NCBI GenBank assembly: GCA_964016885.1
Contig: OZ024744.1
Coordinates: 47,554,001-47,618,000, forward strand
Length of the DNA: 64,000 nucleotides
Source: Eledone cirrhosa
Lineage: Eukaryota
Direction: 5' to 3'
Shown here one piece after another: positions 20,614 through 62,323 of the stretch. Made by a program: the position numbers and the translations under genes. Every line of letters starts with the position of its first letter. Position 1 is the first letter of the stretch. Under the pieces are notes generated by a model that saw only the letters and a list, made by a program, of their open reading frames with translations, searched no databases and was not told the DNA's origin.

Positions 20614-20716
20614 TATATATAGTGTATATAATAGTTGTAAAGTCACTGGTGCCGATCTGTATCAGTCTTTCCCTTGGACAACATGACATATAGTCTATAT
20701 ATACTGGACAGTATTA

Positions 20717-24339: not shown

Positions 24340-25070
24340 AAAATTCTATTTAGGAAACCGAATGATTCTCGGCTTCAGAGTGTACGTGTCTCTATTTGCA
24401 TACCCATGGCGGGTGTTTCCGCGTATGCATGTGTATGTACGTATATGGAGGCCTGCAGCTATATAATTAATTATTTTTGATTTCAATAACCTCTGTAATT
24501 TATTTACATTATTCTTAACTCTGAAGCCGAGAATCATTCGGTTTCCTAAATATAATTTTAGTCTATGAGAATCATTCAGTTATACTATAGACGTGGTTTT
24601 GTCTTTGCGTGTAATTGTTCTCAACGATCCACATAATCACGTATTATCGCCGTTTTTTTCCGTTCATTGCCAGAGAACGTCTCCACGAACGACCTAATAG
24701 AATATTAGTCTAAGACTTCAGTTATACCATGAACGTAGTTTTGTCTTTGCGTGTAATTGTTTTCACCACTCGAAATAATGACGTATTATCTTTGTTTTTC
24801 CGTTCTTTGCCAGGGAACATCTCCACGAACCAAAGTATCGTCTTCCTGTCTTCCTTCTGTTGCAATGTTTTTCGAAATATTTACTTCTGTGTTCACAGAT
24901 TGATTTTTTTAGTTTCAGAAGATCCCATTAAGGGTGAAAGCAGTTATTCTTTGCTTAAACTTTAATCTGTTATTTTAATAAATATTTGCTCTACAGTTTT
25001 ATATATTTGATATATATTTATCCTTATCGAGCCCTCTTTGGATTTTAGTCTTCAAATTTATTATTATTAC
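24340..25070 (+). mobile_element. Solo pLTR of PLE family B with a short inverted 5' arm
   Basis: Homologous to 52300-52890; 24340..24381 is the reverse complement of 24518..24559; ends in (TA)n. Confidence 0.8.
24911..24961 (+). ncRNA. Type I hammerhead-like motif, family B (CAGAAGA core); also 45726..45776+, 52820..52870+, 44879..44929-, 48173..48223-, truncated 39744..39793-
   Basis: AGTTT-CAGAAGA-T CCC N5 GGG T-GAAAGCA N9 TGCTT-AAACT: helices I, II and III all pair. Confidence 0.65.
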
Positions 25071-28580: not shown

Positions 28581-28695
28581 TTAATGTAGATTAGGTTCTA
28601 CAGGTCTACAACTGTTTCATTCTTTAGAAATAATCAGGATTCCTGATGATATCTAATGAATGAAACAGTTCTAGTCCTGTAGAATCTCATCTATA

Positions 28696-29965: not shown

Positions 29966-30682
29966 TTATATGCATTTAAAAAAAGAAAAAGTCGTTTTCA
30001 AACGATGGTTACAGTATAGAGAACGTTCAATTTTGCTGTTCAAAAGTTTGTTTACCGACGTTAAAATGCAGTACATCTCTAAATTGCATAACTTGCAGAA
30101 TCGATGATTTTGCTGATATGCAGGCGCAGCTGCAATAATTTGCCAATCAAGGGAGAACGCTTGATTGTTCCTCCGAAGCTGCCAGGCTTTATCGGCGAGG
30201 GTTGTTACGGAGCGCATTTTCTCGTGCCTGATCGAAGATCGATGTTGGTATAGGCGAGCCTTGAAAGAAGTTGCGGTACATCCGACGTAATACCATTTGT
30301 TGGTTCCGGAATTTATTGTACATCGGTAGACAATATTGCGTGCTAGGCACTGGTTATTCAGTGGGCATGTACCTGGTTTGGTGCAGTTACAATTATTTTT
30401 ATGTTTTGCAGTAGAATCCTGGATAGTTTGGTGGGGTTGTGGTTGCATGTTAGTGGGTTGTATGTTGCTATGCTGGTGCGTTGAGTCATTAGTGATGTAC
30501 TTATTCAGTATTGCTGAGTTGAGTTTTCTAATTAGTTGTTCTATGTTAGGTGCAGTGGAGTATGAGAGTCTAATGGTGCGCGAGTTGAAGATTTTATAGT
30601 ATTTATGTGAAGTTATAAAGTGTTTATTGATTAGTGTATAGAATTGTGAGATAATCTTAGTGCTAATAGAAGAATTGTACAC
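29966..30682 (-). CDS. PLE linker and GIY-YIG endonuclease (fragment of the single PLE ORF)
   Basis: CNC-x5-CPL..QCL..NIVY...YVG.T..SFKAR..QH...TTLA...W...CKLC..E; C-terminal C.H. Confidence 0.88.
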   Translation of the reverse strand: MYNSSISTKIISQFYTLINKHFITSHKYYKIFNSRTIRLSYSTAPNIEQLIRKLNSAILNKYITNDSTHQHSNIQPTNMQPQPHQTIQDSTAKHKNNCNCTKPGTCPLNNQCLARNIVYRCTINSGTNKWYYVGCTATSFKARLYQHRSSIRHEKMRSVTTLADKAWQLRRNNQAFSLDWQIIAAAPAYQQNHRFCKLCNLEMYCILTSVNKLLNSKIERSLYCNHRLKTTFSFFKCI

Positions 30683-32368
30683 GGGGTTATACCATATGTA
30701 CTCTCCACGTCTGACTCTATTTGCTGGTTTGCACCTATTAGTATGCCTATTGATGTGTGTGTGTGTGGTGCAATACTAGTTCGACTTACATGTGTTTTAT
30801 TCGTAGTACTTATGTGGTTATCGTCTAGATATTCAATTTTCTCGCAGTAACCAGCTTTTCTAAGTGCGTCATTATAATATTCAGCATGCTCGTTGAAGTC
30901 TGCAAATTAGACGACAGTCGGGAGATCCTTATGGATATATTTTTAGGGATAGATTTAATAATGGAATGAGGATGGTTCGATTTTACATTAACGTACTTAA
31001 GATTTTCATTAATATATATTATATATAGTGTATTTTGCAATACACTGTATGCTTAATTAAAAGCATTTCGAAGACCTTATGCTATTTTTTAGAGTAGTGA
31101 CAGTCTCACTTACTTTAAACTTTCAGCAAACAGGGGAGATAAAGCTGACAGAGCTATGTTTCGTACTGATTGTTACTTATCAAAGCCAAGTACTCCACCT
31201 TTTTGCTGAAAATCATGAATGTTTGATTCTTATATAAATTCTAGTAATAATCAGGAACTGATTATACAGAGCGGCTGCCGTTCAAGCAGAAATTGAAAAT
31301 TAGAATTGGCGCTCTGAAATAGCGATATATATATGAATGTATATATAGTGTATTTTGCAATACACTGTATGCTTAAGTAAAAGCATTTCGAAGACCTTAT
31401 GCTATTTTTTAGAGTAGTGACAGTCTCACTTACTTTAAATTTTCAGCAATATTGTTATGCTTTGGGAGGGTCATGTTGCCAATAAGAAACACACGCACCA
31501 GCTGCTTTCACTCCAATTTATTATAAGTTAAATTTATAAATTTAAGAATTTATGAATTTCCGGTTGGTTGGTTTGTTCCACAACCGGACGGTTGTTCATA
31601 TATTGTCAAAGTTCTTTCGTCACACATTCTGTGACCTCTTCAGTGACTGGGGATTCTTTTCTTTGTTTTGTGCCTCTCCTTTGTTCTGTCCTACGCCATC
31701 TTGTTTGTGTGTGTGTTGTGTGCTTAGTTTGCGCATGTGTTCCATCCGGGTGTCTGTGTGTGTGTTTATAAAAATAAAAATAAAAACACACACAGACACC
31801 CAGATGTAACACAAAAACAAGACACAACACACACACAAAAACAAGATGGCGTAGGACAGAACAAAGGAGAGGCACAAAACACAGAAAAGAATCCCCAGTC
31901 ACTGAAGAGGTCACAGAATGTGTGACGAAGAACTTTGCCAATATATGAATAACTGTCCGGTTGTGGAACAAACCAACGAACCGGAAATTTATAAATTCTT
32001 AAATTTATAAATTTAACTGATAATAAATTGGAGTGAAAGCAGCTGGCGCGTGTGTTTCATATTGGCAACATGACCCTCCCAAAGTATAACAATATCGGTT
32101 TCAACACTCGTTTTCAGATAAAGAATCTTGCTAAACAAATTCAGAAACGAAAAAAAATATATATATATATAGATAAATCTACCAAAAGTTTACGGTAGTG
32201 TCCAATCCGTATGAAGAACTCAATGTAATCCGGATATCATGAAAATATGAGATGCATTCAAAAATCACTTTCGGTGAAAGATAAACGGAATACAGAGTCA
32301 AGATAAAATATTAAAAAAATAATGAATATAACAAAGAAACAGTTCCTTATATTAAACAAAAAAAAGTT

Positions 32369-33959: not shown

Positions 33960-34960
33960 AATCTGCAGTTAAATCATAATATGTGTTTACATAGTTGTGT
34001 CAGTATTAGGAAATGGTATTTGTAAGAAAGAAGGCTAAATTATGTATTTTAATATAAGTAGACTATTAATTATAGGTTAATTAAAGTAAAAATAGTTAAT
34101 ATATTAATTTCTAAGGTGTATACTACTTAGGTTTATAATATTTAAAGCGGAATTTTGAAGTTAAACAGTAGTAGAGTATTAATTATAGCATAACAAAATT
34201 AAAAATAATTACATATATTAACATGATGGTATCAATTTTAGGAAATGAATTTTGTAATAGGGAAAGCCAAATTAAGTATTTCATCGGTAGTAGAATATTA
34301 ATTATAGGTTAACTAAATTAAAAATTATATATTAATTTCTATAGTATATGTTAATTAGGTTTATAATAATTAAAGCAAAATTTTGTATTTTATCTATAGT
34401 AGAATATAATAATAGGTTAACTAAATTAAAATTAATCTATATATTTATTTGTAAAGAGTATATTAATCAGGTATATATTTAAAAGTTTTTCTCAGTTTAT
34501 GATTACACGATAATCTTCAATCCATCTGTATTAGAATTTTAATTATAATCTAACTAAATTAAAATTATAGGTTAACTAAATTAAAATTTATTTATAAATT
34601 AATTTCTAAATTGTATATTAATTAGGTTTATAATATTAAAAAGTATTTCTCCGTTATTAATTACACGATATTTTGTTGTATTTCATCTGTAAAAGAATTA
34701 GAATAAAAGGTTAAATAAACTAAAATTAATCTATATATTAAATTCCAAAGTATATATTAATTATGTTAATAATATTTAAATGTTTTTCACAGTTTATGAT
34801 TATACGATATTTTTTAATTTCATCTGTAGTAGAATTTTAATTAAATTAAAATTATAGGTTAACTACATTAAAATTAATTTATATATTAATTTCTAAAATA
34901 TATATTATTAATTAGGTTTATAATATTTAAATGTTTTTCTCAATTTATGATTACACGATA
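33960..34960. repeat. Degenerate AT-rich tandem repeats that include copies of the last codons of the GIY-YIG ORF
   Basis: TTTTTCTCAATTTATGATTACACGATA-like motif at ~34485, 34645, 34782, 34932; ATTATAGGTTAACTAAATTAAAATT repeated. Confidence 0.7.
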
Positions 34961-36322
34961 TAATTAATTCCTGTCGCTTATTTAATAGGATATCCTTAGA
35001 TTTCATTATTTCAAATAGTTCTTGGGAACACAATCTACATTCATTTCTATTATTTTGATAAGGGGTGGCTCTTTTGAGCACACTCCAGGTCATATCATAT
35101 TCTATATTCTTATTTCTATAACTATTAATTTTTTCTGCTAGAGATGTTGTATTAGCCAGTGCGGCATTTTTAAAACTATGTTTGTGGGTATTAAACCTTA
35201 CCTTAAAATTGTTAGAAGTAGCTCCTATATATGAGCAAATAGAATCTTTAGTTTTAACTTTACATTTATAAACTATGTTGTTAACAAGACAATTTCCTTT
35301 TAATGGGCAGTTTGCTTTGTTTCTACAGTTACAACCTTTCGTTAATTCTGTATTTGAGGAGATATTATGGTTAGTTTGATGTATTGGTGGTATACTTATG
35401 GGTTTTTTTACATTTATATGCATTATAGGCACTTATATTTTGTTTTATATTTTTGGTTGTTGAGTATGAGAATTTAACTGTTGATCTATTTAAGATTTGA
35501 TTGTATTTGTGGTTTGGCGGGAAGTTTTTCTCTAGGATGTTAAAAAATTTTTTAGCAATATTATCCTTAATTTGTAAATTAAATGGAGCATTATACCAAG
35601 TAACTCGTCTATTACGGTTTCTATGTTGTTTATTGTTTTTATAGGATGCATCCTGATGTTTACTAGGAGGATTAATGTTAATGACCTCACCACGCACATT
35701 TTTAGTTAGATTTATTGATTTAGGTGTTTTAGCTTGTTTATTAGGAGTTTTATTATTAACATTTATTAGAGTTGTATGATGAGTAGTTTTTTGAGAGTTA
35801 CTATACTTTATATTAGAGGAGTTAGAGAAATTTGGTTTTATGTTGGTATTTTGGGGTATAGTGTGAGTGGCATTTAGGTGTGTACTTTTCATTTGGTGTT
35901 TGTTGGTAATATTAGGTTGTATGTTTATAGTGTTATTAGTAGAAGGTATATATTCCAATCTATTTTTGTGGCCACTTCTATCTAGAGCTTCGTTATAGAA
36001 GGTCGCATTTTTATCAAATACATCTTGGTTAGACGAAAGGTTAGAAATTCTAAGTGATATATTATATGCAAGGTTTTTAAGGATAGATTTAGGGTGATTA
36101 GATTGTGAGTGTATGTAGTGTAAGTTTTGGTTGGGTTTATGGCAAGGTTGGTAGATACCCGTAGCTAAGTCTAAAGTTATATCTAGAAAATTAACTACTT
36201 TACTTGTGTTTTCAAAAGTAATATCAAGACTATAATAGTCTTTAAGGAAAGTTCTAATAAGCTTTTTGTTTTTTTCTATTCCTGAGAGGCTAAGGTTGTT
36301 GGAAAGAAGAAGACAGTCATCA
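34908..36322 (-). pseudogene. PLE ORF fragment: RT from the catalytic DD onward, Asn-rich linker, GIY-YIG
   Basis: Manual translation DDCLLL...VVNFLDITLDL...SNHP; WYNAPF, KFSYST, CNCRNKANCPLKGNCL..NIVY, YIGAT, CRLC; frameshift near 35400. Confidence 0.9.
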
Positions 36323-36890
36323 TAAAAATTTTTTTATTTCTAACTTTATAGATACATTTTTATAAATATGTCAAGTTTAACACTTTCCTTTAATTACTTA
36401 CTCCCTTACCTCCTTTACTTATGCATCTAAATGTAAGTGTGTGTGGGCGTGTTTATGTGAGCGCCTCAATATCCATATAGTTATAATAATAATATATACG
36501 TATGTGTGTGTGTGTATATATATGTGTGTTCGTATGTATGTGTGTGTTTATGTATGTGTACGTGTGTGTGTATGCATGTGTGTATATGTGTGTATATATA
36601 TATGTGTATATATATATGTATATATATGTATATTTTGTCTGTAGATTGTAAACATACAGATACATTAGCCCTAAATTTTTAAATTTTTATATTTACATAC
36701 ACTTTTTCAACATGCGTATGCATATAGGCATATATTTTTATGCATATCTGTGAGCGAATTTACTTACATATATACACACACCTAACCGTATTTTCTTGAT
36801 GAGTTTTTATGTATTTCATTGGTCTATTTAAAATCTGTTCCCAAACAGACCTGTAATTTTGAATTGTTGTTATTATCAATAAATATACAT

Positions 36891-37145: not shown

Positions 37146-37947
37146 ATTCCAGGTTGAATCGGAGGTAACCACAGTAAGTAATGTACTCAATATATAGCAG
37201 ATTATAAAAATTTTAATGTAGTTTCTACAGGACTACAACTGTTTCATTCTTTAGAAATCATCAGGATTTCTGATGATTTCTAAAGAATGAATCAGTTCTA
37301 GTCCTGTAGAATCTCATCTATATTAATATATATATATATTATACACATATCAGTGGTCCCCAACCTATTCTGCACCATGCCCCTCCTCAATCTAAAATAT
37401 GTTTATGTCCCCCTTTATTATTAAAACAAACAGAACGTTGTAAAAGTGTTATTACTGTAATATAAAGAAGAGATCCTTTAATTAAACAAAGCTAAGCTGC
37501 AGCGATGGTCAATACAAACGTATTATATCACTTTCAAATTGACCCGTATTATATTGGGGCGTGTACCCCTCGTTGGGAATCCCTGATATATAAATATATG
37601 TGAGTGTGTTGCTGTGACTGCTATTTCTAGCAGGTTTACTGCTGTCCTGTAGAGGCACAACATAAACCGGAAGTGGCAGCCATTAAAAAACTTTGGGTTA
37701 AAATCAGTGAAAATATTTTAAACAATAGAAAATTTAATGTAAACAAACCAGGGTGTTTTTGCCAAGAAAGGTAACTCTTGTCTTACTTAATCGCAAAAAT
37801 CGAGACAAAAGTTTTGCAGGTGTGCAGTTGGTTTGGTCCTGGTTGTTGGTATTTGACTGCTATTTATAGCATGTATGGACACTTTAGAAATAGCAGCGAT
37901 AAAAACAAAAAGAAGGACACACACACACACACTTATATATATACATA

Positions 37948-39719: not shown

Positions 39720-39925
39720 AATATATTTATTAAAATAACAGATTACTGTTAAAGCAAAGAATCGCTGCTTTCACCCTTAACGGGATCTTCTGATTCTTTG
39801 CTTAAACTTTAATCTGTTATTTTCAAATAAATATTTGCTCTAGCGTTCTTATATATTTGATATATATTTATCCTTATCGAGCCCTCTTTGGATTTTAGTC
39901 TTCAAATTTATTATTATTACTATAT
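39720..39925. mobile_element. Fold-back of family B pLTR 3' ends
   Basis: 39724..39793 minus orientation switches to plus orientation at TCTTCTGA|TTCTTTGC. Confidence 0.75.
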
Positions 39926-40672: not shown

Positions 40673-42151
40673 ATATATATATAAAGTAGGACACGCACAT
40701 GTATATATACATGTTTGTATGTTTGGGTGCTTTCTTACCCTCTATCTCTCCCTCTATATATATATATATCTATATATATCAGTGGTCCCCAACCTTTTCT
40801 GCTACATGTCCCTCCTCAATCTAAAATATCTTTATGTTCCCTTTTAATATAAACACAAACTGAGACTTGTAAAACTAATATAAACTAGAAATCCTTTAAT
40901 GTACTGGGGCCGGTATTAACAAGATAATATATTGGAAGTGTTGCCCCAGCATGGCCTTGGACGAATGAGCAACTAAAATAATAAAATGCTAGAAATAGCA
41001 GTCAAATACCAACAACCAGGACCACATCAACTGCCCGCCCGCAAAATTTTTGTCTCGATTTTTGCGATTAAGTAAGACAAGAGTTATCTTTCTTGGCAAA
41101 AACACTCTGGTTTGTCTACATTAAATTTTCGATTGTTTAAAATATTTTCACCGATTTTAAGCCAAAGTTTTTTAATGGCTGCCACTTCCGGTTTGTGTTG
41201 TGCCTCTACAGGAGAGCAGTAAACCTGCTAGAAATAGCAGTCACAGCAACACACATATATTTATATATCAGGGATTCCCAACGTGGGGTACACGCCCCAC
41301 TGGGGTTAATTTGAATATAATAGGGGTCAATATGAAAGTGATACGACCCAACTTCCAGTTACACTTCGTCTACACATGTTATCGTGTATCTGGCAGCACC
41401 TACGAGAAGTTTGTTTACATTTTGGAGTTTATTTTGATCATCGCTGCATCGTAGCTTTGTTTAATTAAAGGGTTTCTGCTTTATATTAGAGTAATAACAC
41501 GTTTACAAGACTCTTTGTTTTAATAATAAAGGGGGACATAAACATATTTTAGATTGAGGAGGGGCATGGTGCAGATATGATGGGGGACCACTGATATGTA
41601 TTATATATTTATTTCGTTTCTGAATTTGTTTAGCAAGATTCTTTATCTGAAAACGTGTGTTGAAACCGATATTGTTATACTTTGTTATACATGTTGCCAA
41701 TAAGAAACACACGCACCAGTTGCTTTCACTCCAATTTATTATAAATTAAAAAATTTATAAATTTCCGGTTGGTTGGTTCCACAACCGGACGGTTGTTCAT
41801 ATATTGTCAAAGTTCTTTCGTCACACATTCTGTGACCTCTTCAGTGACTGGGGATTCTTTTTTTTGTTTTGTGTCTCTCCTTTGTTCTGTCCTACGCCAT
41901 CTTGTTTTTTGTGTGTGTTGTGGACTTAGTTTGCGCATGTGTAACATCCGGGTGTCTGTGTGTGTTTTTATTTTTATCAAAAACAAGATGGCGTTTTGAC
42001 CATCGCTGCATCGTAGCGTTGTTTAATTAAAGGGTTTCTACTTCATATTACAGTAATAACACTTTTACAAGGCTCTGTTTTAATAATAAAGGGGGACATA
42101 AACATATTTTAGATTGAGGAGGGGCATGGTGGAGAAATGGTTGGGGACCAC

Positions 42152-44767: not shown

Positions 44768-45787
44768 AGTAATAATAATAAATTTTAAGACTAAAATCCA
44801 AAGAGGGCTCGATAAGGATAAATATATATCAAATATATAAGAACCGTAGAGCAAATATTTATTAAAATAACAGATTAAAGTTTAAGCAAAGAGTCGCTGC
44901 TTTCACCCTTAACGGGATCTTCTGAAACTAACAAAGTCAATCTGTAAACGCAGAACTGGATATTTCAAAAAACGTTGCAACCGGAGGAAGACAGGAAGAC
45001 AATACTTTGGTTCGTGGAAACGTTCCCTGGCAAAGAACGGGAAAAAATGAATATAATACGTCATTAATAGGAGCGGTAAGAAAACAATTACGCGCAAAGA
45101 CAGAACCACGTTGTGTGCGCTTGTTATATATTTGTTTATTTATATACGTTAATTTAATTATTTATTTATTTGTATACACGCATAAACACACACACATATT
45201 TATATGTGCGTGGTTTTGTATACCTATGGTAAGTGTTTTCGCGTATGCTTGTGTATGTACGTATTTGTATGCGTGTATGTAGTTATTTAATTTCTATTAC
45301 TTCTGTATTGTATTTATTTACTTTATTCTTAACTCTGAAGCGGAAATTCATTCGGTCTCCTAGTTAGAATTTTAGTCTACGACTTCTGCTATACCATTTA
45401 CGTGGTTTTGTCTTTGTCTTTGGGTGCAATTGTTCTCCACGCTCCACATATGACGTATTATCTTCGTTTTTTTCGTTCATTGCCAGAGAACGTCTCTATG
45501 AACCACCTAAGAGAACATTAGTCTACGCCCTCTTTTATACCATAAACGTGGTTCTGCCTTTGCGCGTAATTGTTTTTCACCGCTCCTATTAATAACGTAT
45601 TATATTCATTTTTTCCCGTTCTTTGCCAGAGAACGTTTCACGAACCAAAGTATCGTCTTCCTGCCTTCCTCCGGTCGCAACGTTTTTTGAAATGTCCACT
45701 TCTGCGTTTACAGATTGACTTTGTTAGTTTCAGAAGATCCTGTTAAGGGTGAAAGCAGCGATTCTTTGCTTAAACTTTAATCTGTTA

Positions 45788-45795
<8 letters not shown>
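44768..45795. mobile_element. Inverted pLTR pair of family B (minus arm 44768..45110, plus arm 45111..45795)
   Basis: Both arms match 52205-52890; (TA)n flanks. Confidence 0.85.
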
Positions 45796-45816
<21 letters not shown>

Positions 45817-45818
<2 letters not shown>

Positions 45819-47172
45819 TTCGTTTCTGAATTTGCTTAGCAAGATTCTTTATCTGAAATCGTGTGTTGAAACCGATATTGTTATACTTTGGGAGGGTCAT
45901 GTTGCCAATAAGAAACACACGCACCAGTTGCTTTCACTTCAATTTATTATTAAAATAAATTTATAATAGATTTATAAATTTATAAATTTCTTTTTGGTTC
46001 CACAACCAGATAGTTGTTTATATATTGTCATAGTTCTTTCGTCACACACTCTGTGACCTCTTCAGTGACTGGGGATTCCTTTCTTTGTTTCTGTGCCTCT
46101 CCTTTGTTCTGTCCTACGCCATTTTGTTTCTGTGTGTGTGTTGTGTGCTCAGTCTGCGCATGCGCCACATCCGGGTGTCTGTGTGTGTTTATGTTCATTT
46201 ATTTATTTGTTTATTTACATGTTACTGGTTGGTTGTTTGTTCTATGTGCGTGTGTGTTTTCATTTTGTCCTTAATTGTAAGTTGTGATGTTGCTGTTCCA
46301 CTCATATTTTCTATTTAATTTTGGTTGTAATTCTTTTATGTTTATTGCCTCTGTGATTTGTCTAAACATTGCGTCTTTTCTGTGTGTAGATTCTATTTTT
46401 ATTTCTATGTTCTCTAAATTACCCTTGTGTTCTATCTTAGCATGTTGGTAGAGTACAGATGATTCTTTACTATCTTGAAGGTCTCGCCAGTGTTCATTTA
46501 TCCGTTCCCCTACACTACGAGCTGTCTCACCTATGTACACTATATATATATATTTTTTTGTCTCTACATTGTCCTTCAGTACATCTCATGCTATACACTA
46601 CATTTCTAGTTTCACAGTTAATATGGGGGCTTACTTTACAGGTTATACATTTCTTATCTATACATGAGGGTCTTTGAAAAGGGTATGTCTTGCTAATAAG
46701 TGTTTTTACGGAGGTACCTGGTCTTTCTGTATCTTAATATTGAGTTTATGTTTATTTAGGGCCCTTCTAAATTTGTAAGCTAATTCACCTCTAGGGGTTG
46801 TATCGATGAACATTACACTCTGGTATTTATTGCTATCATACCATGAGTTTATTCTATTAGCCTTGTTCCTAGTTCTTTCTATTCTATTCCAAAATTTGCT
46901 CCTATACAAGGGGCTGGTCCCATTTATGTCATTATTTACCATTTTTTCCCATTTGGTTCTGGCTCCTCTATACACTCTGCTTATATCTCTCTGATTGTAG
47001 CCAGAGAACTGCATACGGTGGATGAAGTGTTGTATGTGTCTCTCTAGTTCTTCGGGTTGCACATGCGGGACACGTTTCTCATCACATATTATAAATTTAT
47101 TATAATAATAAATTGAAGTGAAAGCAACTGGTGCGTGTGTTTCTTATTGGCAACATGACCCTCCCAAAGTAT

Positions 47173-47320: not shown

Positions 47321-47353
<33 letters not shown>

Positions 47354-47803
47354 ATTATACTTTGAGAGCGTCATGTTGCCAATAAGAAACACACGCACCA
47401 GTGCTTTCACTCCAATTTATTATAAATTAAAAACATTTTTTCTAAAAATTCATAAATTTCCGGTTGGTTGGTTTGTTCCGCAACCGGACGGTTGTTCATA
47501 TATTGTCAAAGTTCTTTCGTCACACATTCTGTGACCTCTTCAGTGACTGGGGATTCTTTTCTTTGTTTTGTGCCTCTCCTTTGTTCTGTCCTACGACATC
47601 TTGTTTTTGTGTGTGTTATGTGCTTAGTTTGCGTATGTGTTACATCCGGGTGTCTGTGTGTGTTTTTATGAAAATAAAAATAAAAACACACACAGACACC
47701 CGGATGTAACACATGCACAAACTAAGCACACAACACACACAAAAAAATAAGATGGCGTAGGACAGAACAAAGGAGAAACATAAAACAAAGAAAAGAATCC
47801 CCA

Positions 47804-47846
47804 GTCACTGAAGAGGTCACAGAATGTGTGACGAAAGAACTTTGAC
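47804..47846 (+). ncRNA. Minimal type I hammerhead, family A; also 27992..28034-, 28290..28332+, 31605..31647-, 31898..31940+, 41806..41848-, 46027..46069-, 47505..47547-
   Basis: GTCA-CTGAAGA-G-GTCACA GAATG TGTGAC-GAAAG AA CTT-TGAC. Confidence 0.72.
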
Positions 47847-48062
47847 AATATATGAACAACCGTCCGGTTGTGGAACCAACCAACCAACCGGAAATTTATA
47901 ATTTTTTTAATTTATAATAAATTGGAGTGAAAGCAACTGGTGCGTGTGTTTCTTATTGCCAACATCACCCTCCCAAAGCATAACAATATCGGTTTCAACA
48001 CACGTTTTCAGATAAAGAATCTTGCTAAACAAATTCAGAAACGAAATATATATATATATAAT

Positions 48063-51000
48063 GGTAATAATAATAAATTTGAAGACTAAAATCCAAAGAG
48101 GGCTCGATAAGGATAAATATATATCAAATATATAATAACCGTAGAGCAAATATTTATTAAAATAACAGATTAAATTTAAGCAAAGAATCACTGCTTTCAC
48201 CCTTAACGGGATCTTCTGAAACTAACAAAAGTCAATATGTAAACGCAGAAGTGGATATTTCAAAAAACGTTGCAACTGGAGGAAGACAGGAAGATGATAC
48301 TTTGGTTCGTGGAAACGTTCTCTGGCAAAGAACGGGAAAAAACGAATATAATACGTCATTAATAGGAGCGGTGAAAAACAATTACACGCAAAGACAGAAC
48401 CACGTTTAGGGTATAAAAGAAGTCGTAGACTAATGTTCTCTTAGGTGGTTCATAGAGACGTTCTCTGGCAATGAACGAAAAAAACGAAGATAATACGTCA
48501 TATGTGGAGCGTGGAGAACAATTGCACGCAAAGACAAAACCACGTAAATGGTATAGTTGAAGTCGTAGACTAAAATTCTAACTAGGAAACCGAATGATTC
48601 TCCGCTTCAGAGTAAAGAATAAATAAATAAAATACAATACAGAGATAATTGAAATAAAATAAATACATACCCGAATCCAAATACGTACATACACAAGCAT
48701 ACGAGAAAACTCTCGCCACAGGTATACAAAACGACGCACATATAAATGTGTGTGTGTGTGTGTGCGTGTATACAAATAAATATGTAATTAAATAAACGTA
48801 TATAAATAAATAAATACGTATATAACAAGCGCACGCACATACCTACATGTAAATCCACAAATGTTCGGAGACGAACGTCAACCAAAGCATGAAGTACACA
48901 TATACACGCATCCAACATGCGTGTGAACCCGCATACTCACACAGACGCAAAACTCCCGTAAACACATAACCAAAAGCATATGTACCAGAATATAGAAAAA
49001 TATACGCCCTAACATATACAATCAAATATACGTACGAGAAAGTATACGTACCTTCATAAAACATACAGATAATATATACTTACCTATGCAAATAAGTAAT
49101 GGTATAAACACAACATATACTTAGCTACCACATCAAGACGTAAAATATCCACGTATAGATCGTACTATCCGTTAGGGTATAATGTGGGGCTGTAATACAG
49201 GAAAGTTTTGAGCAATTTATATTTACAAGCCGAAATTGCCTCAGATTTTTTGTTTAAGATGTGGTCTGTGGCGTAGAGCGTTTCCAGGGCCTCAGCGGCG
49301 CAGAGATCACATGGTTTTTTATTTCCGTTATACGATCTAGCCCTAGCTAGGATCTCCCAGTGTAACTTATATTGGGTGTGGTTGTCTTTTAGACGTGTAT
49401 GTACGTATTTGGATTCGGGTATATATTTATTTAATTGCAATTACCTCTGTATTGTATTTTATTTACTTTATTCTTTACTCTTGAGCGGAGAATCAATGAA
49501 TCAATCGGCTTGTTAGAATTTTAGTCTACGACTTCAGCTATACCATTTACGTGGTTTTGTCTTTGCGTGCAATTGTTCTCCACGCTCCACATATGACGTA
49601 TTATCTTCGTTTTTTCCGTTCATTGCCAGAGAACGTCTCTATGAACCACCTAAGAGAACATTAGTCTACGACTTCTTTTATACCCTAAACGTGGTTCTGT
49701 CTTTGCGTGTAATTGTTTTTCACCGCTCCTATTAATGACGTATTATATTCGTTTTTTTCCCGTTCTTTGCCAGGGAACGTTTCCACGAACCAAAGTATCG
49801 TCTTCCTGTCTTCCTCCGGTTGCAACGTTTTTTGAAATATCCACATACCTAAAATTTCTGATACAGAAAACAGACGCGTTCATTAAAAGGTTGCGTTGGC
49901 GTGCCTTTTATTTCGATAATTCGCGAAAAGCTGACAACAAACAGGATAAATTTGCGTTTAAAACCTATAACCCTCCGTGTAACCCAGCATTGCTACCCTT
50001 TGAAAATGATGTCTTGCACTCATACGGAGTATCAAATTTCGGAATAGGAGCAATTCCTTCCAGCAGGACGTGAAGAATAGAATTCGTTCTATTAAGGATT
50101 CTAATGCCGTACACGTCCATTCCGACAAAACTGGCAACCTATATCAAGTGGAGCGCAGTACTTACCATCAACTCCTACATAATGTTGTAACTAAGGATTA
50201 CCGTAAAACTAATCGGTGCGTCATCAATAAAATCAACGATGCTGGGTTTAAAATCACCTCCGATCTCAACATCCTGGACCGGACCGAACCTTTGGACCCT
50301 ATTTCTCCCCACTTTACACTGAAGAATCACAAATCCGATTTTCCGAACAACCCCTCTATTCGGCTTATTAACCCTACGAAGTCCGACTTAGTAAAAGGAT
50401 TCTTGATAGAATTATACCTGTAATTAGAAGTGTGGCCCCTCTTGCACTGTGGAACAATTCTTTTGCGGTGATTGATTGGTTCAACGGCATATGCAACAAT
50501 GAACATTGCCGTTTTATCCAATTCGACATCAATAATTACTACTCCTCCATCACTTTACCACTTCTACTTAGAGCTATCAATTTCGCTAAAACACTCACAG
50601 TGGTTAAGGATTTCGAAGTTGATGTCATCCTCAATGCCCTTAAGTCGGTGATTAATATCGAGGACTCTATTTGGATTAAAAAGTCCAATAGTACCCCTTT
50701 CGACGTGAGTATGGGCGCAGCGATTCTGCGGAGGTTACTGATCTTATCGGCCTTTTCCTTTTTTCTCCGTCAAGGACGAATTCCCCAACGAGGGCGGTGG
50801 TTTGTACCGTGACGATGGTCTTTTGACCATGACCAAGTGCGACCCTCGTGCTTGCGACAGGTTCAGAAAAGAACTCACAGCCTTCTTTAAAGGCTTCAAC
50901 CTCTCTATACAGGTTGAGGCCAACCTCTCGGTCGTTAATTACCTCGACGTTACCCTCAATTTATCGAATGGCTTCTATTACCCGTATAGAAAGCCGAATG

Positions 51001-52892
51001 ATACGCTTAATTACATTAGTAAGCATTCCAACCAACCTGCCAGCATAACCATGAACCTGGTAAGAAACGTTTCGTTGAGGCTTTCCCGTCTATCTACTAA
51101 CGAGCATATTTTCAACGACCATTCCACTTATTACAATGAAGCTCGGAGTGGATTTGTCGATAAGGTAGCATATACAGAGTACGAGAATAGACCTAGAAGA
51201 AATAGATCCCGTCGCATTATATGGTATAACCCACCGTATAATATGGAGGTGGCCACACCATTAGCTAAGATCTTTCTATCCCTTATTACGAAGCATTTTC
51301 CCCCTACACATAAATATAGTAACATTTTTAATAGAAATACTATTAAAATTTCTTCCTCTACGACTCCTAACATTGCACATAACATCACAGCTTCAAATTT
51401 AGCTAAACTACCTAGCCGTAGGAACACGTGCCACCCTGTGGTTAGTATAAACTGTAATTGTAGGAATCGGGTTGATTGCCCGATATCCGGGAAATGCCTA
51501 TCTAGTAACATTGTCTACAAATATAAGGTTGAAACACCTACATAGGGTTAACCGCCAATAGATTCAAGCAGCGTCTTTACATGCATACCCATTCTTTTCG
51601 TTACCCTCTAAGAAGGAATATGACGTCACTTTCAGCTTATATCTGGAGTCTAAAAGACAACCACACCCAATATAAGTTACACTGGGAGATCCTAGCTAGG
51701 GCTAGATCGTATAACGGAAATAAAAGACCATGTGACCTCTGCGCCGCTGAGGCCCTGGAAATACTCTACGCCACAGACCACATCTTAAACAAAAAATCTG
51801 AGGCAATTTCGGCTTGTAAACATAAATTGCACAAAACTTTCCTGTATTACAGCCCCACATTATACCCTAACGGATAGTACGATCTATACGTGGATTTTTT
51901 ACGTCTTGATGTGGTAGCTAAGTATATGTTGTGTTTATACCATTACTTATTTGCATAGGTAAGTATATATTATCTGTATGTTTTGTGAAGGTACGCATAC
52001 TTTCTCGTACGTATATTTGATTGTATATGTTAGGGCGTATATTTTTCTATATTCTGGTACATATGCTTTTGGTTATGTGTTTACGGGAGTTTTGCGTCTG
52101 TGTGAGTATGCGGGTTCGTACGCATGTTGGGTGCGTGTATATGTGTACTTCATGTTTTGGTTGACGTTCGTCTCTGAATATTTCTGTATATACATGTAGG
52201 TATGTGCGTGCGCTTGTTATATACGTATTTATTTATTTATATACGTTTATTTAATTACTTATTTATTTGTATACACGCACACACACACACACACACATAT
52301 TTATATGTGTGTGGTTTTGTATACCTATGGCGAGTGTTTTCGCGTATGCTTGTGTATGTACGTATTTGGATTCGGGTGTGTATTTATTTATTTCTATTAC
52401 TTCTGTATTGTATTTATTTATTTTGTTCTTAACTCTGTAGCGGAGATTCATTCGGTCTCCTAGTTAGAATTTAGTCTACAACTTCTGCTATACCATTTAC
52501 GTGGTTTTGTCTTTGCGTGCTATTGTTCTCCACGCTCCACATATGACGTATTATCTTCGTTTTTTTTCGTTCATTGCCAGAGAACGTCTCTATGGACCAC
52601 CTAAGAGAACATTAGTCTACGACTTCTTTTATACCATGAACGTGATTCTGTCTTTGCATGTAATTGTTTTTCACCGCTCCTATTAATGACGTATTATATT
52701 CGTTTTTTCCCGTTTTTGCCAGGGAACGTTTCAACGAACCAAAGTATCGTCTTCCTGTCTTCCTCCGGTTGCAACGTTTTTTGAAATATCCACTTCTGCG
52801 TTTACAGATTGACTTTGTTAGTTTCAGAAGATCCCGTTAAGGGTGAAAGCAGCGATTCTTTGCTTTAACTTTAATCTGTTATTTTAATAAAT
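48063..52892 (+). mobile_element. Near full-length Penelope-like element (Hydra-clade-like, family B): inverted 3' copy, partial direct pLTR, ORF, pLTR
   Basis: 48150..49394 is the reverse complement of 51648..52892; 49395..49843 is a direct partial pLTR; ORF 49844..51877. Confidence 0.93.
49844..51877 (+). pseudogene. PLE RT + GIY-YIG ORF with several frameshifts
   Basis: FIKRLRWRA, SDKTGNLY, IRLINP.KSD, FIQFDINNYYSSI, FDVSMG, LYRDDGL, VNYLDVTLNL, WYNPPY, CNCRNRVDCP, TSLSAYIW, CDLC..E, LNKKSE..SAC.H. Confidence 0.93.
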
Positions 52893-53280
52893 ATATATGT
52901 ATATATATAAAGACACATATGTATGTATAAGATCCAAACACACACACATATATGTACACACACGCACATATATGTAATATAGATGTGTGTATGTATGGAC
53001 GTACGCACACACACAAGTATAAATATATCAGGGATATACGCCCCACAGGGAGCAATTTGTATATAATAGGGGCCAATTAGAAGCAGAAAAGTTTGGGGAC
53101 CACTGAAGACAACAAATCGTTCTTTTTATTTTATTACAATTGAGTTCAAATCCCGCCAAGGAAAACTTTGCCTTTCATCCTTACGGGGTCGATAAAATAA
53201 AGTACCAGTAATACACTGAGTAATTGCTGGCCTTGTGCCAAATGTAGAAACAATTATTATTATCATATATATATATATAT

Positions 53281-55062
53281 GACGCTGATAAAAAGGAAGC
53301 TTGGTAGTGTCACTACGAAAGGCGTCTAAATGAGGAGAATAAATGGGAGAAAGACAGTCTTCCCCACATCAATAGTCTTCCCCACATCAATCCAATAGAG
53401 GGAACAGCAGTGCAAGTTGAGGGTAGTATAATAAGAAAGGCAATCAAAGAAATGAAGACGGGTAAGGCGGCTGGGCCTTCGGAAATAGTTGCTGAAATGC
53501 TGAAATCATCTGGAACGGTGGGACACACTATGGTCACCCGGATAGTAAACCAAGTCATACAGAATGGGGCCGTTCCGAAGGACTGGCGTAGCAGCATCAT
53601 CATTAACTGCTACAAGGGTAAAGGAGATGCCCTAGATATGGGAAACTATAGAGGCATTAAATTAATCGACCAGGTCATGAAGGTCACAGAAAAAGTAATA
53701 GCGCAACTAATCAGAGAACGAATTGATCTAGATGAAATGCAGTTCGGGTTTGTGTCAGGTAAAAGTAAACCAGACGTTCTTTTCATTGTACGACAACTAC
53801 AGGAGAAGTACCTAGCTAAAAGTAAACCCCTATACTTAGCTTTTGTTGACTTGGAGAAAGCCTTTGACAGAGTCCCCCGCTCCATTATCTGGTGGGCTGT
53901 TAGAAAACTAGGTGTTCATGAAATGGCTTGTGAGAGCTATACAAGACATGTATAAAGAAACAGTCAGCAAGGTTAGAATTAACAACGAATATAGTGAAGA
54001 GTTTAGCGTAAAAGTTGGTGTTCATCAGGGCTCCGTTCTTAACCCCCTACTATTTATTATTGCCCTTCAGGCTATAACAGAGGAGTTCAAGACCGGATGC
54101 CCATGGGAAGTCTATATGCAGATGATCTAATGTTCATAGCTGAATCAATGGCTGAATTAGAGAAGAAATTCTAAACATGGAAGCATGGCCTAGATTCAAA
54201 AGGCCTTAAAGTTAACTTGTTTTAGACTAAAGTTCTAGTTTGTAGGAAGGAAAATAGGGCACCGGTCCCATCTGGGAAATGGCCATGCTCAGTGTGTAGG
54301 AAAGGAGTAGGCAGAAACTTGATTTTATGTCCCAAATGCAAAGTATGGGTGCATAAAAGATGTAGTGGGATCACAGGTGAGCTAACTAAGAATGTAGATT
54401 TTATATGTGGCCGGTGCTCTGGTGCAATAAGTAGCAGCAAGTGCCCACAGAATACTAGCTCATTCCATTGCACAGATGGTTCTATAGAAATAGTGGACAC
54501 CTTTCGTTACCTGAGTGACAAAATCAGCAGTGGGGGAGGGTGCCCTGAAAGTACAGTAGCTAGAGTCAGAACAGGATGGAAAAAGTTCAGAGAGCTTATA
54601 CCACTATTGGCCGCTAAAGGCTTCTCTCTAAAAATGAAAGGCAGGCTGTATGATGCCTGCATACGAACAGCAATGTTACATGGTAGTGAGACCTGGGCCT
54701 TGTGTGCAGAGGATCTACGCAGACTGGAGAGGAACGAAGCTTGCATGCTCCGCTGGATGTGTAATAGTAATTAATATACGTGAACGGCAAAGCATAAACG
54801 ACCTAAGGGAGAAATTAGGAATAAGAGGGATCAGATGTTGTTTACTCGAGAGAAGACTACGTTGCTACGGTCACGTGATGCGCATGAAAGACGACAGCTG
54901 TATAAAAAAAGTGCAGGGCGATAAAAATAGACGGTAGCCACGGAGTAGGCAGACCCAGAAAAACATGGGACGACTTGATAAATTCCGACCTCACACACTT
55001 ACACCTCTCCAAGACAATGACACTGGACCGAGATCTTTGGCGCTACACAGTAATAGAGAAAA
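53281..55062 (+). mobile_element. RTE-clade LINE fragment (RT with intact PHD finger)
   Basis: ORFs 53410..53955, 53912..54130, 54292..54774, 54650..54937; very similar to the 20717..23093 copy. Confidence 0.94.
54286..54417 (+). other. C4HC3 PHD-type zinc finger inside the RT; also 19489..19622+, ~15170..15305-, ~12490..12620-, partly deleted ~21760..21866-
   Basis: CSVC-x10-CPKC-KVWV-HKRC-x14-CGRC, between the KTK motif and FRYL(G/S). Confidence 0.85.
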
Positions 55063-55289
55063 CCCGAATGTGTGTGTGTGTCCTTCTTTCTGTTTTTCAG
55101 TGTTCCCCAATATTCTCTGCTTCAAATTAACCCCTATTATATACAAATTGCTCCCTGTGGGACGTATATCCCTGATATATATATAATTGTGTGTGTGTGT
55201 GTGTGTGCACGTGCATTCACACACACTTATTTTACATTTATGTGCGTGTGTGTACATATATTTGTGTGTTTGGATGTTATATATACGTA

Positions 55290-56936: not shown

Positions 56937-58806
56937 ATTAAAATACTGGAGCGTGTTGGAGCTAAACACCCTCTTCGTATTATAGAAATGACAGTAAAAG
57001 GTATAGCTCAATGTAATTAAACAGAGCCGATGAATTATGAAAGTAAAACAAAGAAGCCTTCAATACATCAAAAGTCTTTATTAGCCAACAATGTTTCGTC
57101 CTATTAAGGACTCATCTGGACAATTAAAACAACAAGAAGTATTATCGGCCAATACAAGCCGAAAACTCCGAAGAATATGGAGTGTACATACACTAAAGTA
57201 TTGCAAGATTATGGGTAAAAATATATAATAGAAATATATAATAAAAATCACTAAGGAGGTGTATAACATTTAGAACCATATTACAAATATAGTCCAAAGC
57301 AAAAAAAACCTCGAGCTAAACAAAGGTGGTTATATAGAGCGGGAATTATATATCATACCATATAAAATAATATAATATACTTGTAACAATATTAAAATTA
57401 CAATAAAAATTAAAAGGTACAATATATATATGTATATATGTACGCACACGTACGCACACATACACATACATCAATACACATATCCATCTTCAACAGCACA
57501 AATTAAACCTTATTAAGTGTTTAAATATAAATAAGCATGATAGGAATAAAAATAATAATAATAATAATAATACGTATATCTAATATACATGAGGTAATAA
57601 TATGATATGATTATAAGCAGCACATATAATATATAATAAACTATACAATTATATACCATATAATATAATATAATATAATAGATAATCACCGGTTAATTTA
57701 CGCAAACAATATAGATGTCACAATAATACTATAATAATAATATAATAACATATATAATACATAACATATAATGGCATGCAAGTTAACAAATCAATTCATA
57801 TAGAGTTACAGAGTAGGTGAGAAAAAATATAAATTATACAATACACAAAATTATGATGGTACAAAAATATAAACCTCTTACATGATATATAAAGTTCAAC
57901 ATATCGTAATGGTACAATATAATCAACGGTAAGTAATAAGGATCGATAGTACAATAACAAATATAATATAAAATAATTAACATAATATAATATATAATTA
58001 CTTATAATTACAAGGTAGGTAAACAGACATATATGTGGATGAGTGAGTAAGGGCCAGACAGTAAATAGAATGCACAGTAGTATTAATAAATAAATAAATA
58101 AATAAATAGAATCAACCGGAAATTAAAAAACAAGAACAAAAGTATATACTTAGGTCTCACATACAGTTAAGTAAAAACTTAGGAAACAACCCCAGTAAAT
58201 GACTCGAAAACCCTATTTGATAAATTAATATTAAAAATATTTAAAATATCTAATAAGGCAATACAATATTAGCTATGGTTTAAGTAATCAAAATTTATAA
58301 ACGTTAGTATTTAACTACAAATATATATATAAGGAATGAAATTTTCTACTATCATTTACATAACGATATCTAAAAAACTGACCTAAGCAGAATTATGGTA
58401 GGCTAATAGGGACAGAAAAAAAGAAATGTATGGAGCATACAAAGGAGCATAAAATCAGCCAATATACTATATTAAATAATAGAAAGGAGCGTAAAAGAGG
58501 GGGGGGGATTAAATATAATCATAATCTATTTGAAGGGGTTGACAATAAGTTTAGTACGTATGGGGGGGGGTATCCAAGAAGAATCCAAGTAAAATAAAAT
58601 AAAATAAAATGAAATAAAATAAAATAATGTAAAATATATAATCAGATATATACTCATAATGCGTAAGAAGATAGATATGGTATAGTAGCCAAAAGATTAT
58701 GAGAGCTAGAATAAAGAGTTGTCAAAAACCAATGATAATAATGATGATAATAATGGTGGTAAACAAAAAGAACCTAAACTAAAAAATAAGTAATGGAATA
58801 TATCAG

Positions 58807-59090
58807 CTAATGGATACAATTTATACTACTAGAACCATTGGGTTTATAATAAAAGTAAGAATTAGAAATAGCGTGGGGGCAAGAAGAAAATATCTCAGAC
58901 TTTCTATTAAGTAAGGATTCGCTAGAGAAAATTATAGAGTGTGTCTCGAGGATACAGAGATTACAAAATTTAGTATGTGTAGAAAGGTTATTAGAGCGTG
59001 CTACTAAACGCCAATTAAGGCTATATGGTATATTAGCCCCCTTAAGATCCCAGATATAGTGTGCTAAAGAAGTAGAATTCTTAAACGTAA
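58807..59090 (-). pseudogene. C-terminal half of a GIY-YIG endonuclease in the inverted arm
   Basis: KNSTSLAHYIWDLK...LNW.LVARS...CNLCILE..SI...LLNRKSEIFSSCPH. Confidence 0.85.
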
Positions 59091-60300
59091 CATGTTTACT
59101 AGCAGCCCGTAGAACTATTATTAAATTTGAGGACACATTTTGGACCCGTAAAAACACGCCCAACAATTTCGACGTTACAATGGGTTCGAGTGATTCGGCC
59201 CCGGTAACTGATCTTGTTGGGTTGTTCCTCCTAAATGAACTATATGTTACTTTTCCGCACTTTAAAGGCGGACTATATCGTGATGATGCATTGTTTCTAA
59301 TTAACTCTAGCACCAACAATGTCGAGCATAATAAGAAGCTTTATAAGTTTTTTAAAAGCTATAACCTTTCGATCACAATAGATAGAAACGATAGAGCGGT
59401 CAACTTTTTAGATGTGACTTTGGACTTGGTCACTAATAGTTTTAAACCCTTCCTTAAGCCTAATGAAATAATTTCTTATTTTAGTCCCTATTCTAACCAC
59501 CCCAAATCTATGATAAGCTCTATAATTAAGGGTGTATCTAATAGGATTTCCACACTTTCTAAGGACGTAGGAACATTTAATGAACATGCGGAGTACTATA
59601 ATAATGCCCTAGCAAATTCCGGTTACTCTAGTAAAATACATTATAATAATAGTAACCTTAGAAAGTCTCCGCTTACTTATAATAATAATAACATAATATC
59701 ACATAACATGGCCATGAATGGGAGTAGGAAATATAATAACCGTAAAAATTACATAGGTGTATCTGAACCCATCCATAAGTTAACCCACGGGACTCGTAAT
59801 AGGGAATATAATACCTCTAGGAAACAAGTCGAACCCTCTGAGCGCTCACTCATTGGTGATAATTTTGCTAGATCTAATTCTAATATTGTTGCTTCTACTG
59901 ATCCTATTATTGGCCCTAATCCTTTTGATGGGATTCCAGACGACAGCAGATCTACTGGAGGTAGAAACAGTAAGAGACTTAATGGAATGTTGGCTGATTC
60001 TAATAATGCGGTTTTAACTAATCCTTGTAGTAACCCTAGTCTTAATGGTGGGATATTAGATAATGGTAGAATCGGTAAGGATAAAAATAGAAGGAGACTA
60101 AATACTTATTTTAACCCGCCATATAATCAGGAAGTATTAACTAATATCCCTAGGTCTTTCTTTTCTATCTTAGAGAAAAATTTCCCCGCTTCTCATAAAT
60201 ACCATAGTATTTTTAATAAAAATGTTATTAAACTTTCATTCTCTACCACCCGTAATATTACTTCTCATTTAGCTAGCACTAACAATAGGAAAATTAGGGA
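59091..60300 (+). CDS. PLE RT fragment (palm, thumb, long Asn/Ser-rich linker), EN absent
   Basis: FDVTMGSSDSA.VTDLVGL, GGLYRDD, VNFLDVTLDL, SNHP, YFNPPY, KLSFST; open frame then joins the 3' UTR. Confidence 0.9.
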
Positions 60301-61846
60301 TGGATTCTCCTCTCTACATACTACTATATATCTGATTATATATTTTACATTATTTTATTTTATTTCATTTTATTTTATTTTATTTTACTTGGATAACCCC
60401 CCCCCCCCCCCATGCGTACATAAACTTATTGTCAACCCCTTCAAATAGATTATGATTATATTTAATCCCCTCCTCTTTTACGCTCCTTTCTATTATTTAA
60501 TATAGTATATTGACTGATTTTATGCTCCTTTGTATCCTCCATACATTTCTTTTTTTCTGTCACTATTAGCCTACCATAATTCTGCTTAGGTCAGTTTTTT
60601 AGATATCGTTATGTAAATGATAGTAGAAAATTTCATTCCTTATATATATATTTGTAGTTAAATACTAACGTTTATAAATTTTGATTACTTAAACCATAGC
60701 TAATATTGTATTGCCTTATTAGATATTTTAAATATTTTTAATATTAATTTATCAAATAGGGTTTTCGAGTCATTTACCGGGGTTGTTTCCTAAGTTTTTA
60801 CTTAACTGTATGTGAGACCTAAGTATATACTTTTGTTCTTGTTTTTTTAATTTCCGGTTGATTCTATTTATTTATTTATTTATTTATTAATACTACTGTG
60901 CATTCTATTTACTGTCTGGCCCTTACTCACTCATCCACATATATGTCTGTTTACCTACCTTGTAATTATAAGTAATTATATATTATATTATGTTAATTAT
61001 TTTATATTATATTTGTTATTGTACTATCGATCCTTATTACTTACCGTTGATTATATTGTACCATTACGATATGTTGAACTTTATATATCATGTAAGAGGT
61101 TTATATTTTTGTACCATCATAATTTTGGGTATTGTACAATTTATATTTTTTCTCACCTACTCTGTAACTCTATATGAATTGATTTGTTAACTTGCATGCC
61201 ATTATATGTTATGTATTATATATGTTATTATATTATTATTATAGTATTATTGTGACATCTATATTGTTTGCGTAAATTAACCGGTAATTATCTATTATAT
61301 TATATTATATGGTATATAATTGTATAGTTTATTATATATTATATGTGCTGCTTATAATCATATCATATTATTACCTCATGTATATTAGATATACGTATTA
61401 TTATTATTATTATTATTATTTTTATTCCTATCATGCTTATTTATATTTAAACACTTAATAAGGTTTAATTTGTGCTGTTGAAGATGGATGTGTGTATTGA
61501 TGTATGTGTATGTCTGCGTACGTGTGCGTACATATATACATATGTATATTGTACCTTTTAATTTTTATTGTAATTTTAATATTGTTACAAGTTTATTATA
61601 TTCTATTATATGGTATTATATATAATTCCCGCTCTATATAACCACCTTTGTTTAGCTCTAGTTTTTTTTTGCTTTGGACTATATTTGTATTATGGTTCTA
61701 AATGTTATACACCTCCTTAGTGATTTTTATTATATATTTCTATTATATATTTTTACCCATAATCTTGCAATACTTTAGTATATGTACACTCCATATTCTT
61801 CGGAGTTTTCGGCTTGTATTGGCCGATAATACTTCTTGTTGTTTTA

Positions 61847-61890
61847 ATTGCCCTGATGAGTCCTTAATAGGACGAAACATTGTTGGCTAA
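61847..61890 (+). ncRNA. Canonical minimal type I hammerhead; mirror copy 57082..57124(-) has CAGATGA
   Basis: GCC-CTGATGA-GTCCT TAAT AGGAC-GAAAC ATT GTT-GGC-T-AATAAA. Confidence 0.85.
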
Positions 61891-62323
61891 TAAAGACTTT
61901 TGATGTATTGAAGGCTTCTTTGTTTTACTTTCATAATATATATATATATATATATATATGCAAATGAGTAGCGAAATCTATCTACACGTTGATCCCTGGG
62001 TCACATTTAATGGTCATTTTCTGTGTGAACTCCCTTTGGGCATCAACAGGCCTGAGATTGGGCGACCTCAAGCCTTGGAGACAGAGGACGTGACATAGAT
62101 AAACAGCCCGCCTTAGATCAGGCCAAGCAGTTTGGAGCATTTCTTTATAGAGTAAACATGTAAACTATTGCTTTCCACAGACGCCTTTGGTCTCAGTGAC
62201 TCTTACTCTCTCTTTCACCCAATCTCTCTCTCTTGGTCTCTCTCTCCACCCAGCCAGTGAAGTTCATGAAGTTTTTTTGATAAATACCATTTTAACTCTA
62301 CTTTGAAAGAAACAAGTAATAAA

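Follow-up and report, generated by a model that had tools for sequence, protein, structure and literature searches.

A Hydra-clade Penelope-like retroelement of Eledone cirrhosa whose terminal hammerhead motif carries A at core position 4

We analysed a window of 64,000 nucleotides from the genome of Eledone cirrhosa (contig OZ024744.1, positions 47,554,001 to 47,618,000, forward strand), in which copies of a hammerhead-like motif, called here family B, had been predicted. Sequence comparison identifies all six window copies as ends of a Hydra-clade Penelope-like retroelement (PLE). Positions within the motif are numbered from the predicted cleavage site 3′ of U17, with +1 for the base that follows and −41 for C3; others are window positions unless a locus is named. 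The features are as follows.

52820..52870, plus strand: hammerhead-like motif of type I, the element's 3′ copy (descriptor, alignment, covariance model); helix I 5′ strand 52820-52824, 3′ strand 52866-52870 with its first base privately mutated to T; core CAGAAGA 52825-52831, A4 at 52826; helix II with U·U base 52832-52844; GAAA 52845-52848; helix III 52848-52864; U17 52865
52804..52879, plus strand: outer helix I extension with a 7-nt U-rich bulge (52813-52819), predicted in four of four family B folds
52818..52824, plus strand: TTAGTTT, an initiator-like motif by its presumed resemblance to Inr (junction pile-up, extra G)
49843..52894, plus strand: Hydra-clade Penelope-like element, truncated at its 5′ side, which matches positions 186-3260 of the unit of tandem locus L041 at 92.8% identity
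49843-51874, plus strand: remnant of the reverse transcriptase/endonuclease ORF, broken by frameshifts
49395..49843, plus strand: incomplete copy of the 3′ untranslated region, repeated upstream and ending before the hammerhead
48065..49394, minus strand: inverted 5′-truncated partner; hammerhead at 48170-48226, end of the longer +114 type
44770..45800, both strands: back-to-back element ends; 44770-45112 (minus) with motif 44876-44932 and +114 end, 45112-45800 (plus) with motif 45723-45779 and +29 end
39723..39919: stub insertion, a minus-strand motif from position −42 joined to an inverted piece
24395..25069, plus strand: older-subfamily end, ∼82% identical, with the same A4 core and motif 24908-24964
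57034..61937: insertion of an unrelated Hydra-type family, family C, used as a control; motif 61845-61892 (plus) canonical, motif 57079-57126 (minus) privately mutated

As predicted, all six window copies follow the consensus CAGAAGA-T-CC(C/T)-N5-GGG-T-GAAAGCA...TGCTT (C3 at +24916, −39792, −44924, +45731, −48218 and +52825). A helix I of AGTTT/AAACT had been claimed for all of them as well; we saw it intact in just three. In copy 52820-52870 the 3′ strand reads TAACT, through an A-to-T change at +1 private to this copy; one base of the helix is missing from the 48218 copy; in the 39792 copy the 5′ strand is absent owing to the inversion junction. An outer extension of helix I, overlooked in the original prediction, adds 9 bp (52804-52812 with 52871-52879) around the 7-nt bulge. 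The motif has the architecture of a type I hammerhead, with complementarity for three helices around the core and helix I open; helix III has 5 bp and is not of the dimer type. With A at position 4 the motif departs from the canonical core (CUGANGA...GAAA...UH); all other core bases are canonical.

The heptamer CAGAAGA alone occurs in the window at chance level (8 matches versus 6.8 expected). The full descriptor, which allows any base at position 4, has one match in the 3.26-kb element, 25 bases from its 3′ end; shuffled versions of the element produced any match in 3 of 1000 cases and an equally good match in 0 of 1000. A covariance model built from 24 hand-picked unrelated Hydra-type hammerheads of related elements, with covarying helices, recovers all six window copies at rough E values of 0.00085-0.3, scoring the family B sequence at 19.4 bits and a natural U4 copy at 26.9 bits. 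The Rfam search did not recognise the family B motif, and within the family B helices we saw no compensatory changes.

Locus L041 carries a tandem unit of 3,259 bases, which runs from a 3′ end with the motif through a 5′ leader, the ORF and a 3′ region to the second motif and (TA)n. The single ORF encodes a reverse transcriptase (RT) together with a GIY-YIG-like endonuclease at its C terminus; its 708-aa translation contains RWR, DKT, YRDD, a CxCx5C linker (CNCRNRADC) and a C-terminal IVY...YIG. An RWK-like motif, DKT and a CxCx5C linker mark the Hydra clade (PMC8557442), and we found all three (with DKT replacing DKG), along with (TA)n insertion and the tandem and inverted terminal arrangement of that clade. 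The clade assignment follows from protein motifs and arrangement; a Pfam search of the ORF returned no family, and the domain names follow from the motifs and from comparison by eye with the alignment of PMC8557442. Among 69 scored ORF matches 48 had no internal stop, mostly frames of ∼713 codons, 95-97% identical to the query; open frames at such identity indicate that family B is young. A non-LTR retrozyme, that is, a small non-coding tandem unit, was ruled out, the unit being a 3.26-kb ORF-bearing element. Low-depth contigs of two other organisms, covering parts of the element, were left out of the analysis.

The original prediction had named a genome-wide CTGAAGA consensus as the outcome that would speak against a fixed U4A, the change of U4 to A. 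This is not what the 3.0-Gb genome contains: the pattern with position 4 free had 23,175 matches, with A4 in 22,921 (98.9%). Among 100 listed of the 254 other matches, position 4 was T in 42, G in 37 and C in 21, a mixture that looks like the one expected from mutation after insertion. A4 is present in both old and young subfamilies; for loci with a near-intact ORF, motifs were found at 28 of 30, and all 52 motifs had A4. A CAGATGA copy (C3 at −57118) had been offered as a second case of U4A, and here the prediction failed. This copy belongs to family C, with 2,506 matches; since no CAGA occurred among the 100 listed (97 CTGA, 2 CCGA, 1 CGGA), it is a one-off private mutation. A candidate second A4 family (132 matches versus 84 in the reversed control, at one spacing only) was rejected, as no large family was seen. 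Candidates for a U4 sister family, two protein matches at 73-75% identity, turned out to be frameshifted family B copies; other families seen in the protein comparison were mostly 33-58% identical, over short stretches.

Relatives of the element retain U4. Scanning related metagenome loci with position 4 free, we detected motifs at 57 of the 79; U4 was present in 49 of the 51 distinct motifs and C4 in one, the remaining one being a likely chance match inside an ORF. Other hammerhead families met in the genome have U4, except for one C4 copy. U4A in family B is thus derived and, as judged from these sequences, rare. The other peculiarity pointed out originally, the U·U pair at 10.1/11.1, is present but ordinary for the clade, as it occurs in 14 of 25 published Hydra families; U·U is the best-tolerated mismatch at these positions (PMC3088659). 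C4 hammerhead-like motifs are at L098/L154 (one genomic place) and at L338 near 2668, and U3-A8 core variants at L053, L192, L163 and L202 in this genome and at L333 and L355 in the related metagenome loci.

With the Hydra-clade PLEs of Craig et al. 2021 (PMC8557442) family B shares RWR, DKT, YRDD, CxCx5C, the C-terminal IVY-YIG, (TA)n insertion, tandem and inverted ends, a hammerhead close to the 3′ end, the U·U and U17 (10 of 25 families). It differs in having CAGA where all 25 families have CUGA (the descriptor used there demanded CUGA), in a longer and non-palindromic helix III, and in a unit of 3.26 kb where the clade usually has <3 kb; the family B motif was not found in the searched text of the supplement. 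With the metazoan PLE hammerheads of Cervera and de la Pena 2014 (PMC4209133) it shares the position in terminal repeats, thousands of dispersed truncated copies, an expected low activity and occasional U3-A8 variants; the text consulted mentions no change of U4, and the 5-bp helix III of family B is not of the dimer type. Position-4 change with reduced activity has a precedent in Perreault et al. 2011 (PMC3088659), who describe a viroid U4C, a phage A6C and U10.1·U11.1; family B carries U4A rather than U4C, fixed in an autonomous retroelement family of >20,000 copies. In the literature searched we found no report of a natural U4A hammerhead, nor were U4A data present in the portions consulted of PMC11014351, PMC13725137, PMC7229834, PMC5614642, PMC4176186, PMC6765202 and bioRxiv 10.64898/2026.07.22.740005. 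From these comparisons, the U·U pair and U17 appear to be known features of Hydra-clade hammerheads; a type I hammerhead with U4A fixed in a PLE, PLE-like by position and structure, appears to be new in its non-canonical core.

Sites where copies begin and end give an indication of the RNA from which they were made. The 3′ ends concentrated at +24 to +33 (50 of 86) and at +105 to +116 (24 of 86); 85 of the 86 copies ran past the cut site and none ended at it. For instance, the element at 49843..52894 extends 29 bases beyond the cut site and terminates in (TA)n. Among 93 5′ junctions 22 fell at −40 to −49, as compared with 2, 8, 4 and 6 in the four bins on the side of the cut and 3, 1, 0 and 1 in the four on the far side; the −40 to −49 bin is inflated by six junctions at −43, mostly inversion junctions with palindromic microhomology. 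Eight junctions were at −46, and in seven of these the preceding base was G in place of the element's T. Genome-wide, G at −47 gave 1,532 matches versus 1,202 for A plus C, and all 30 G-preceded loci fetched were true junctions, some of them arranged head to head in pairs, a single base separating the two Gs. In 17 of these 30 loci the adjoining inverted partner does not provide the extra G; microhomology could explain 8, and 5 had no partner. In L1 and SVA an untemplated G is the accepted sign of a capped template (PMC4859970), and the extra G at the 5′ edge of the motif is likely to be a copied cap. We infer that capped transcripts begin with the first base of helix I, the A at 52820 being the position where they would start in upstream repeats. 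With this start the 5′ copy of the motif lacks the outer helix, whose formation is restricted to the 3′ copy in the RNA. Copies with the extra G must have had RNA templates that were uncut, or rejoined with the cap; family B copies are likely made from uncut RNA.

We observed GCTC...GAGC motifs just after both 3′ end points, at L041 2081-2117 (+114) and 1997-2062 (+29); the one after +114 was predicted as a 4-bp hairpin, and the one after +29 folded in another register. Also, seven copies of the sequence that follows the cut site in the element, each beginning at the cut site or adjoining it, were seen at G000:C2:61196562-61197525, six of them in tandem ∼150 bases apart.

To see whether the motif is constrained, we used copies picked solely by the +1 to +24 anchor (93 of 100 listed were analysable, 29 of them long enough) and compared 8 old with 15 young copies, 23 in all. 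The consensus sequences of the two subfamilies differed at 0 of 46 motif positions, 0 of 9 positions of the outer helix strand, 2 of 7 bulge positions and 19 of 138 upstream positions; by our calculation, 0 of 55 differences at a rate of 13% has a chance of ∼0.0005. Besides the bulge, a change fell at −63, just beyond the predicted 9-bp outer helix. Columns polymorphic in >8% of copies were 0 of 69 in the motif plus outer helix versus 24 of 153 upstream, in a sample partly chosen by motif patterns. The hammerhead fold thus looks constrained between subfamilies, as judged from the sequence. Loop bases of the motif were as frozen as core bases, and this conservation is invariance with no compensatory changes; hence a promoter or a protein-binding site could produce the same pattern.

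Does the motif cut? Junction matches at the cut site numbered 523 versus 604 at a context-matched control position, with no spike; mutated intact copies may have made up ∼1/10 of the listed matched-control matches, and they were 6 of 30 cut-site loci inspected. An apparent six-fold enrichment (523 versus 84) was rejected, since its control lacked the TT|AA context. In the canonical family C we found no junction at +1 among 72 anchors examined out of 100 listed, the 72 including every anchor with no exact core match. As a canonical family is likewise free of cut-site junctions, genomic junctions as a proxy do not separate active from dead motifs. Family C did have a weak cluster of junctions at −79 to −83 (4 of 72: L198, L210, L292, L312), at an AGTTTT ∼80 bases before the cut site that is like the start motif of family B and could be a transcription start.

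In a type III hammerhead the single and double mutants of the CUGA turn have low activity, except for the C3-G8 swap (PMC9901934), and PLE hammerheads are often weak (PMC4209133); the viroid U4C variant, although weak in vitro, is viable (PMC3088659). The literature searched contained no measured rate for U4A in a full-length type I context. The combination of U4A, U17 and an A-U-rich helix I may leave the motif effectively dead. Fold prediction gave the hammerhead state a probability of ∼0.0015 in the short 3′ form and ∼0.0001 in the 5′ form, with strong dependence on context; the hammerhead is not the predicted lowest-energy fold of family B, and the canonical family C motif misfolds too in the same model. 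Pairing of A4 with the helix III strand, considered as an off-state, was rejected at a predicted probability of ∼0. An A4-dependent pairing of CAGA with +10 to +13 was predicted at 0.5-0.7 in short 5′ transcripts up to +30, falling to 0 at +60, a weak hint, from modelling, of an off-state of the 5′ copy. One could speculate about a two-state design, possible on these predictions, with a silent 5′ copy (no outer helix, A4 pairing with the free downstream strand) and a 3′ copy that alone folds.

The family is, then, the host of a terminal hammerhead in a young high-copy Hydra-clade PLE with U4A fixed, and the explanation that we favour, though at about even chances, is that this hammerhead is a slowed but still folded ribozyme. 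The RNA would begin with one copy of the motif, with no outer helix, and carry a second copy, with the outer helix, near its 3′ end. The enzyme of the element would prime at (TA)n sites 29 or 114 bases beyond the cut site, and copying would proceed through the cut site, sometimes as far as the cap. Since efficient cutting of the 5′ copy would take off the cap, and that of the 3′ copy the priming sites, a slow core would cost little and may help: weak cutting would leave the capped RNA whole for translation and copying, while a little cleavage may persist, most probably in the 3′ copy. Copies that span the cut site arise in canonical family C as well, and hence a slow core is no prerequisite for them.

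The original prediction had set a functional variant against a dead fold; it was right about the fixed U4A and had recognised neither the host element nor an RNA start at the edge of the motif. A catalytically dead motif kept for a non-catalytic job, as an internal core promoter or an RNA shape recognised by protein, is possible, though we doubt it on balance. Such a promoter would overlap the first 50 transcribed bases, with the inferred start at the first base of the motif, and in Penelope an internal promoter lies downstream of the start (PMC2377424). A signal of this kind would be in keeping with loop bases frozen like core bases, with the lack of both excess junctions and copy ends at the cut site, with U4 back-mutants (∼0.5% of matches) that never founded a subfamily, and with the weakness of U-turn mutants (PMC9901934). 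However, although the outer helix strand is situated upstream of the start and can pair in no RNA copy but the 3′ one, it is unchanged, whereas the bulge and the first unpaired base beside that helix do change; every other catalytic base is retained, and the junction test is negative in the canonical family as well.

An improbable alternative is a neutral dead relic carried by a successful master element, in which A4 became fixed by founder effect and is unconstrained. All subfamilies seen descend from one A4 ancestor, with no U4 sister family found, and Naiad elements are reported to spread with no canonical hammerheads (PMC8557442); the 0 of 55 consensus differences versus 19 of 138 upstream, however, lead us to disfavour lack of constraint. 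A fully active non-canonical ribozyme, in which long helix III, outer helix and a bulge-to-loop contact compensate U4A and copies come from religated or circular RNA, is very unlikely. In its favour, the extended helix I with its bulge presumably resembles full-length hammerheads. Although helix III is long enough for a monomer and tertiary contacts have been proposed to offset core changes (PMC3088659), copies with the extra G needed RNA with an intact 5′ motif, A4 was absent among the 51 related motifs save one likely chance match, and the predicted fold is weak.

Family B would amount either to a newly recognised tolerated core variant or to a hammerhead fold kept with no cutting. We hold it conceivable, and put it forward tentatively, that a hammerhead has turned here into a largely non-cutting structure at a capped RNA start, in a family that ranks among the most abundant hammerhead carriers met in the genome. 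Were the non-cutting reading true, self-cleavage would be dispensable for Penelope-type transposition and the fold would act as a signal that overlaps the promoter or binds protein. Why PLEs carry hammerheads is stated as open in PMC8557442 and PMC4209133, and family B makes a natural experiment: a young autonomous family with one nearly invariant core base changed, an RNA start that can be deduced from the copies, and built-in controls in the natural U4 back-mutant copies and in the canonical families of the same genome. Descriptor searches that require CUGANGA would miss families such as B entirely.

Some other elements of the window deserve mention. The 3′ untranslated region of the element contains a duplicated unit of ∼135-140 bases, ∼80% identical, at 52471-52741, present too at 49515-49792, 48303-48579, 45366-45647 and 24549-24832. 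A third Hydra-type hammerhead family, with a canonical core, forms back-to-back stubs at 28605-28689 and 37220-37316, which adjoin Penelope ORF remnants at 34908-36333 and 29966-31040. Remnants of non-LTR retrotransposons, with endonuclease and RT matches, lie at 17337-23093 and 53280-55067, with a big inverted pair at 18277-23093. Fold-back elements of ∼650 bases occupy 27836-28487, 31449-32095 and 47349-47989, with related pieces at 41594-41977 and 45798-46214; these elements account for the sub-threshold Rfam microRNA matches in the window. Positions 1-11837 are a long tandem array with a 48-base period and units ∼92% identical.
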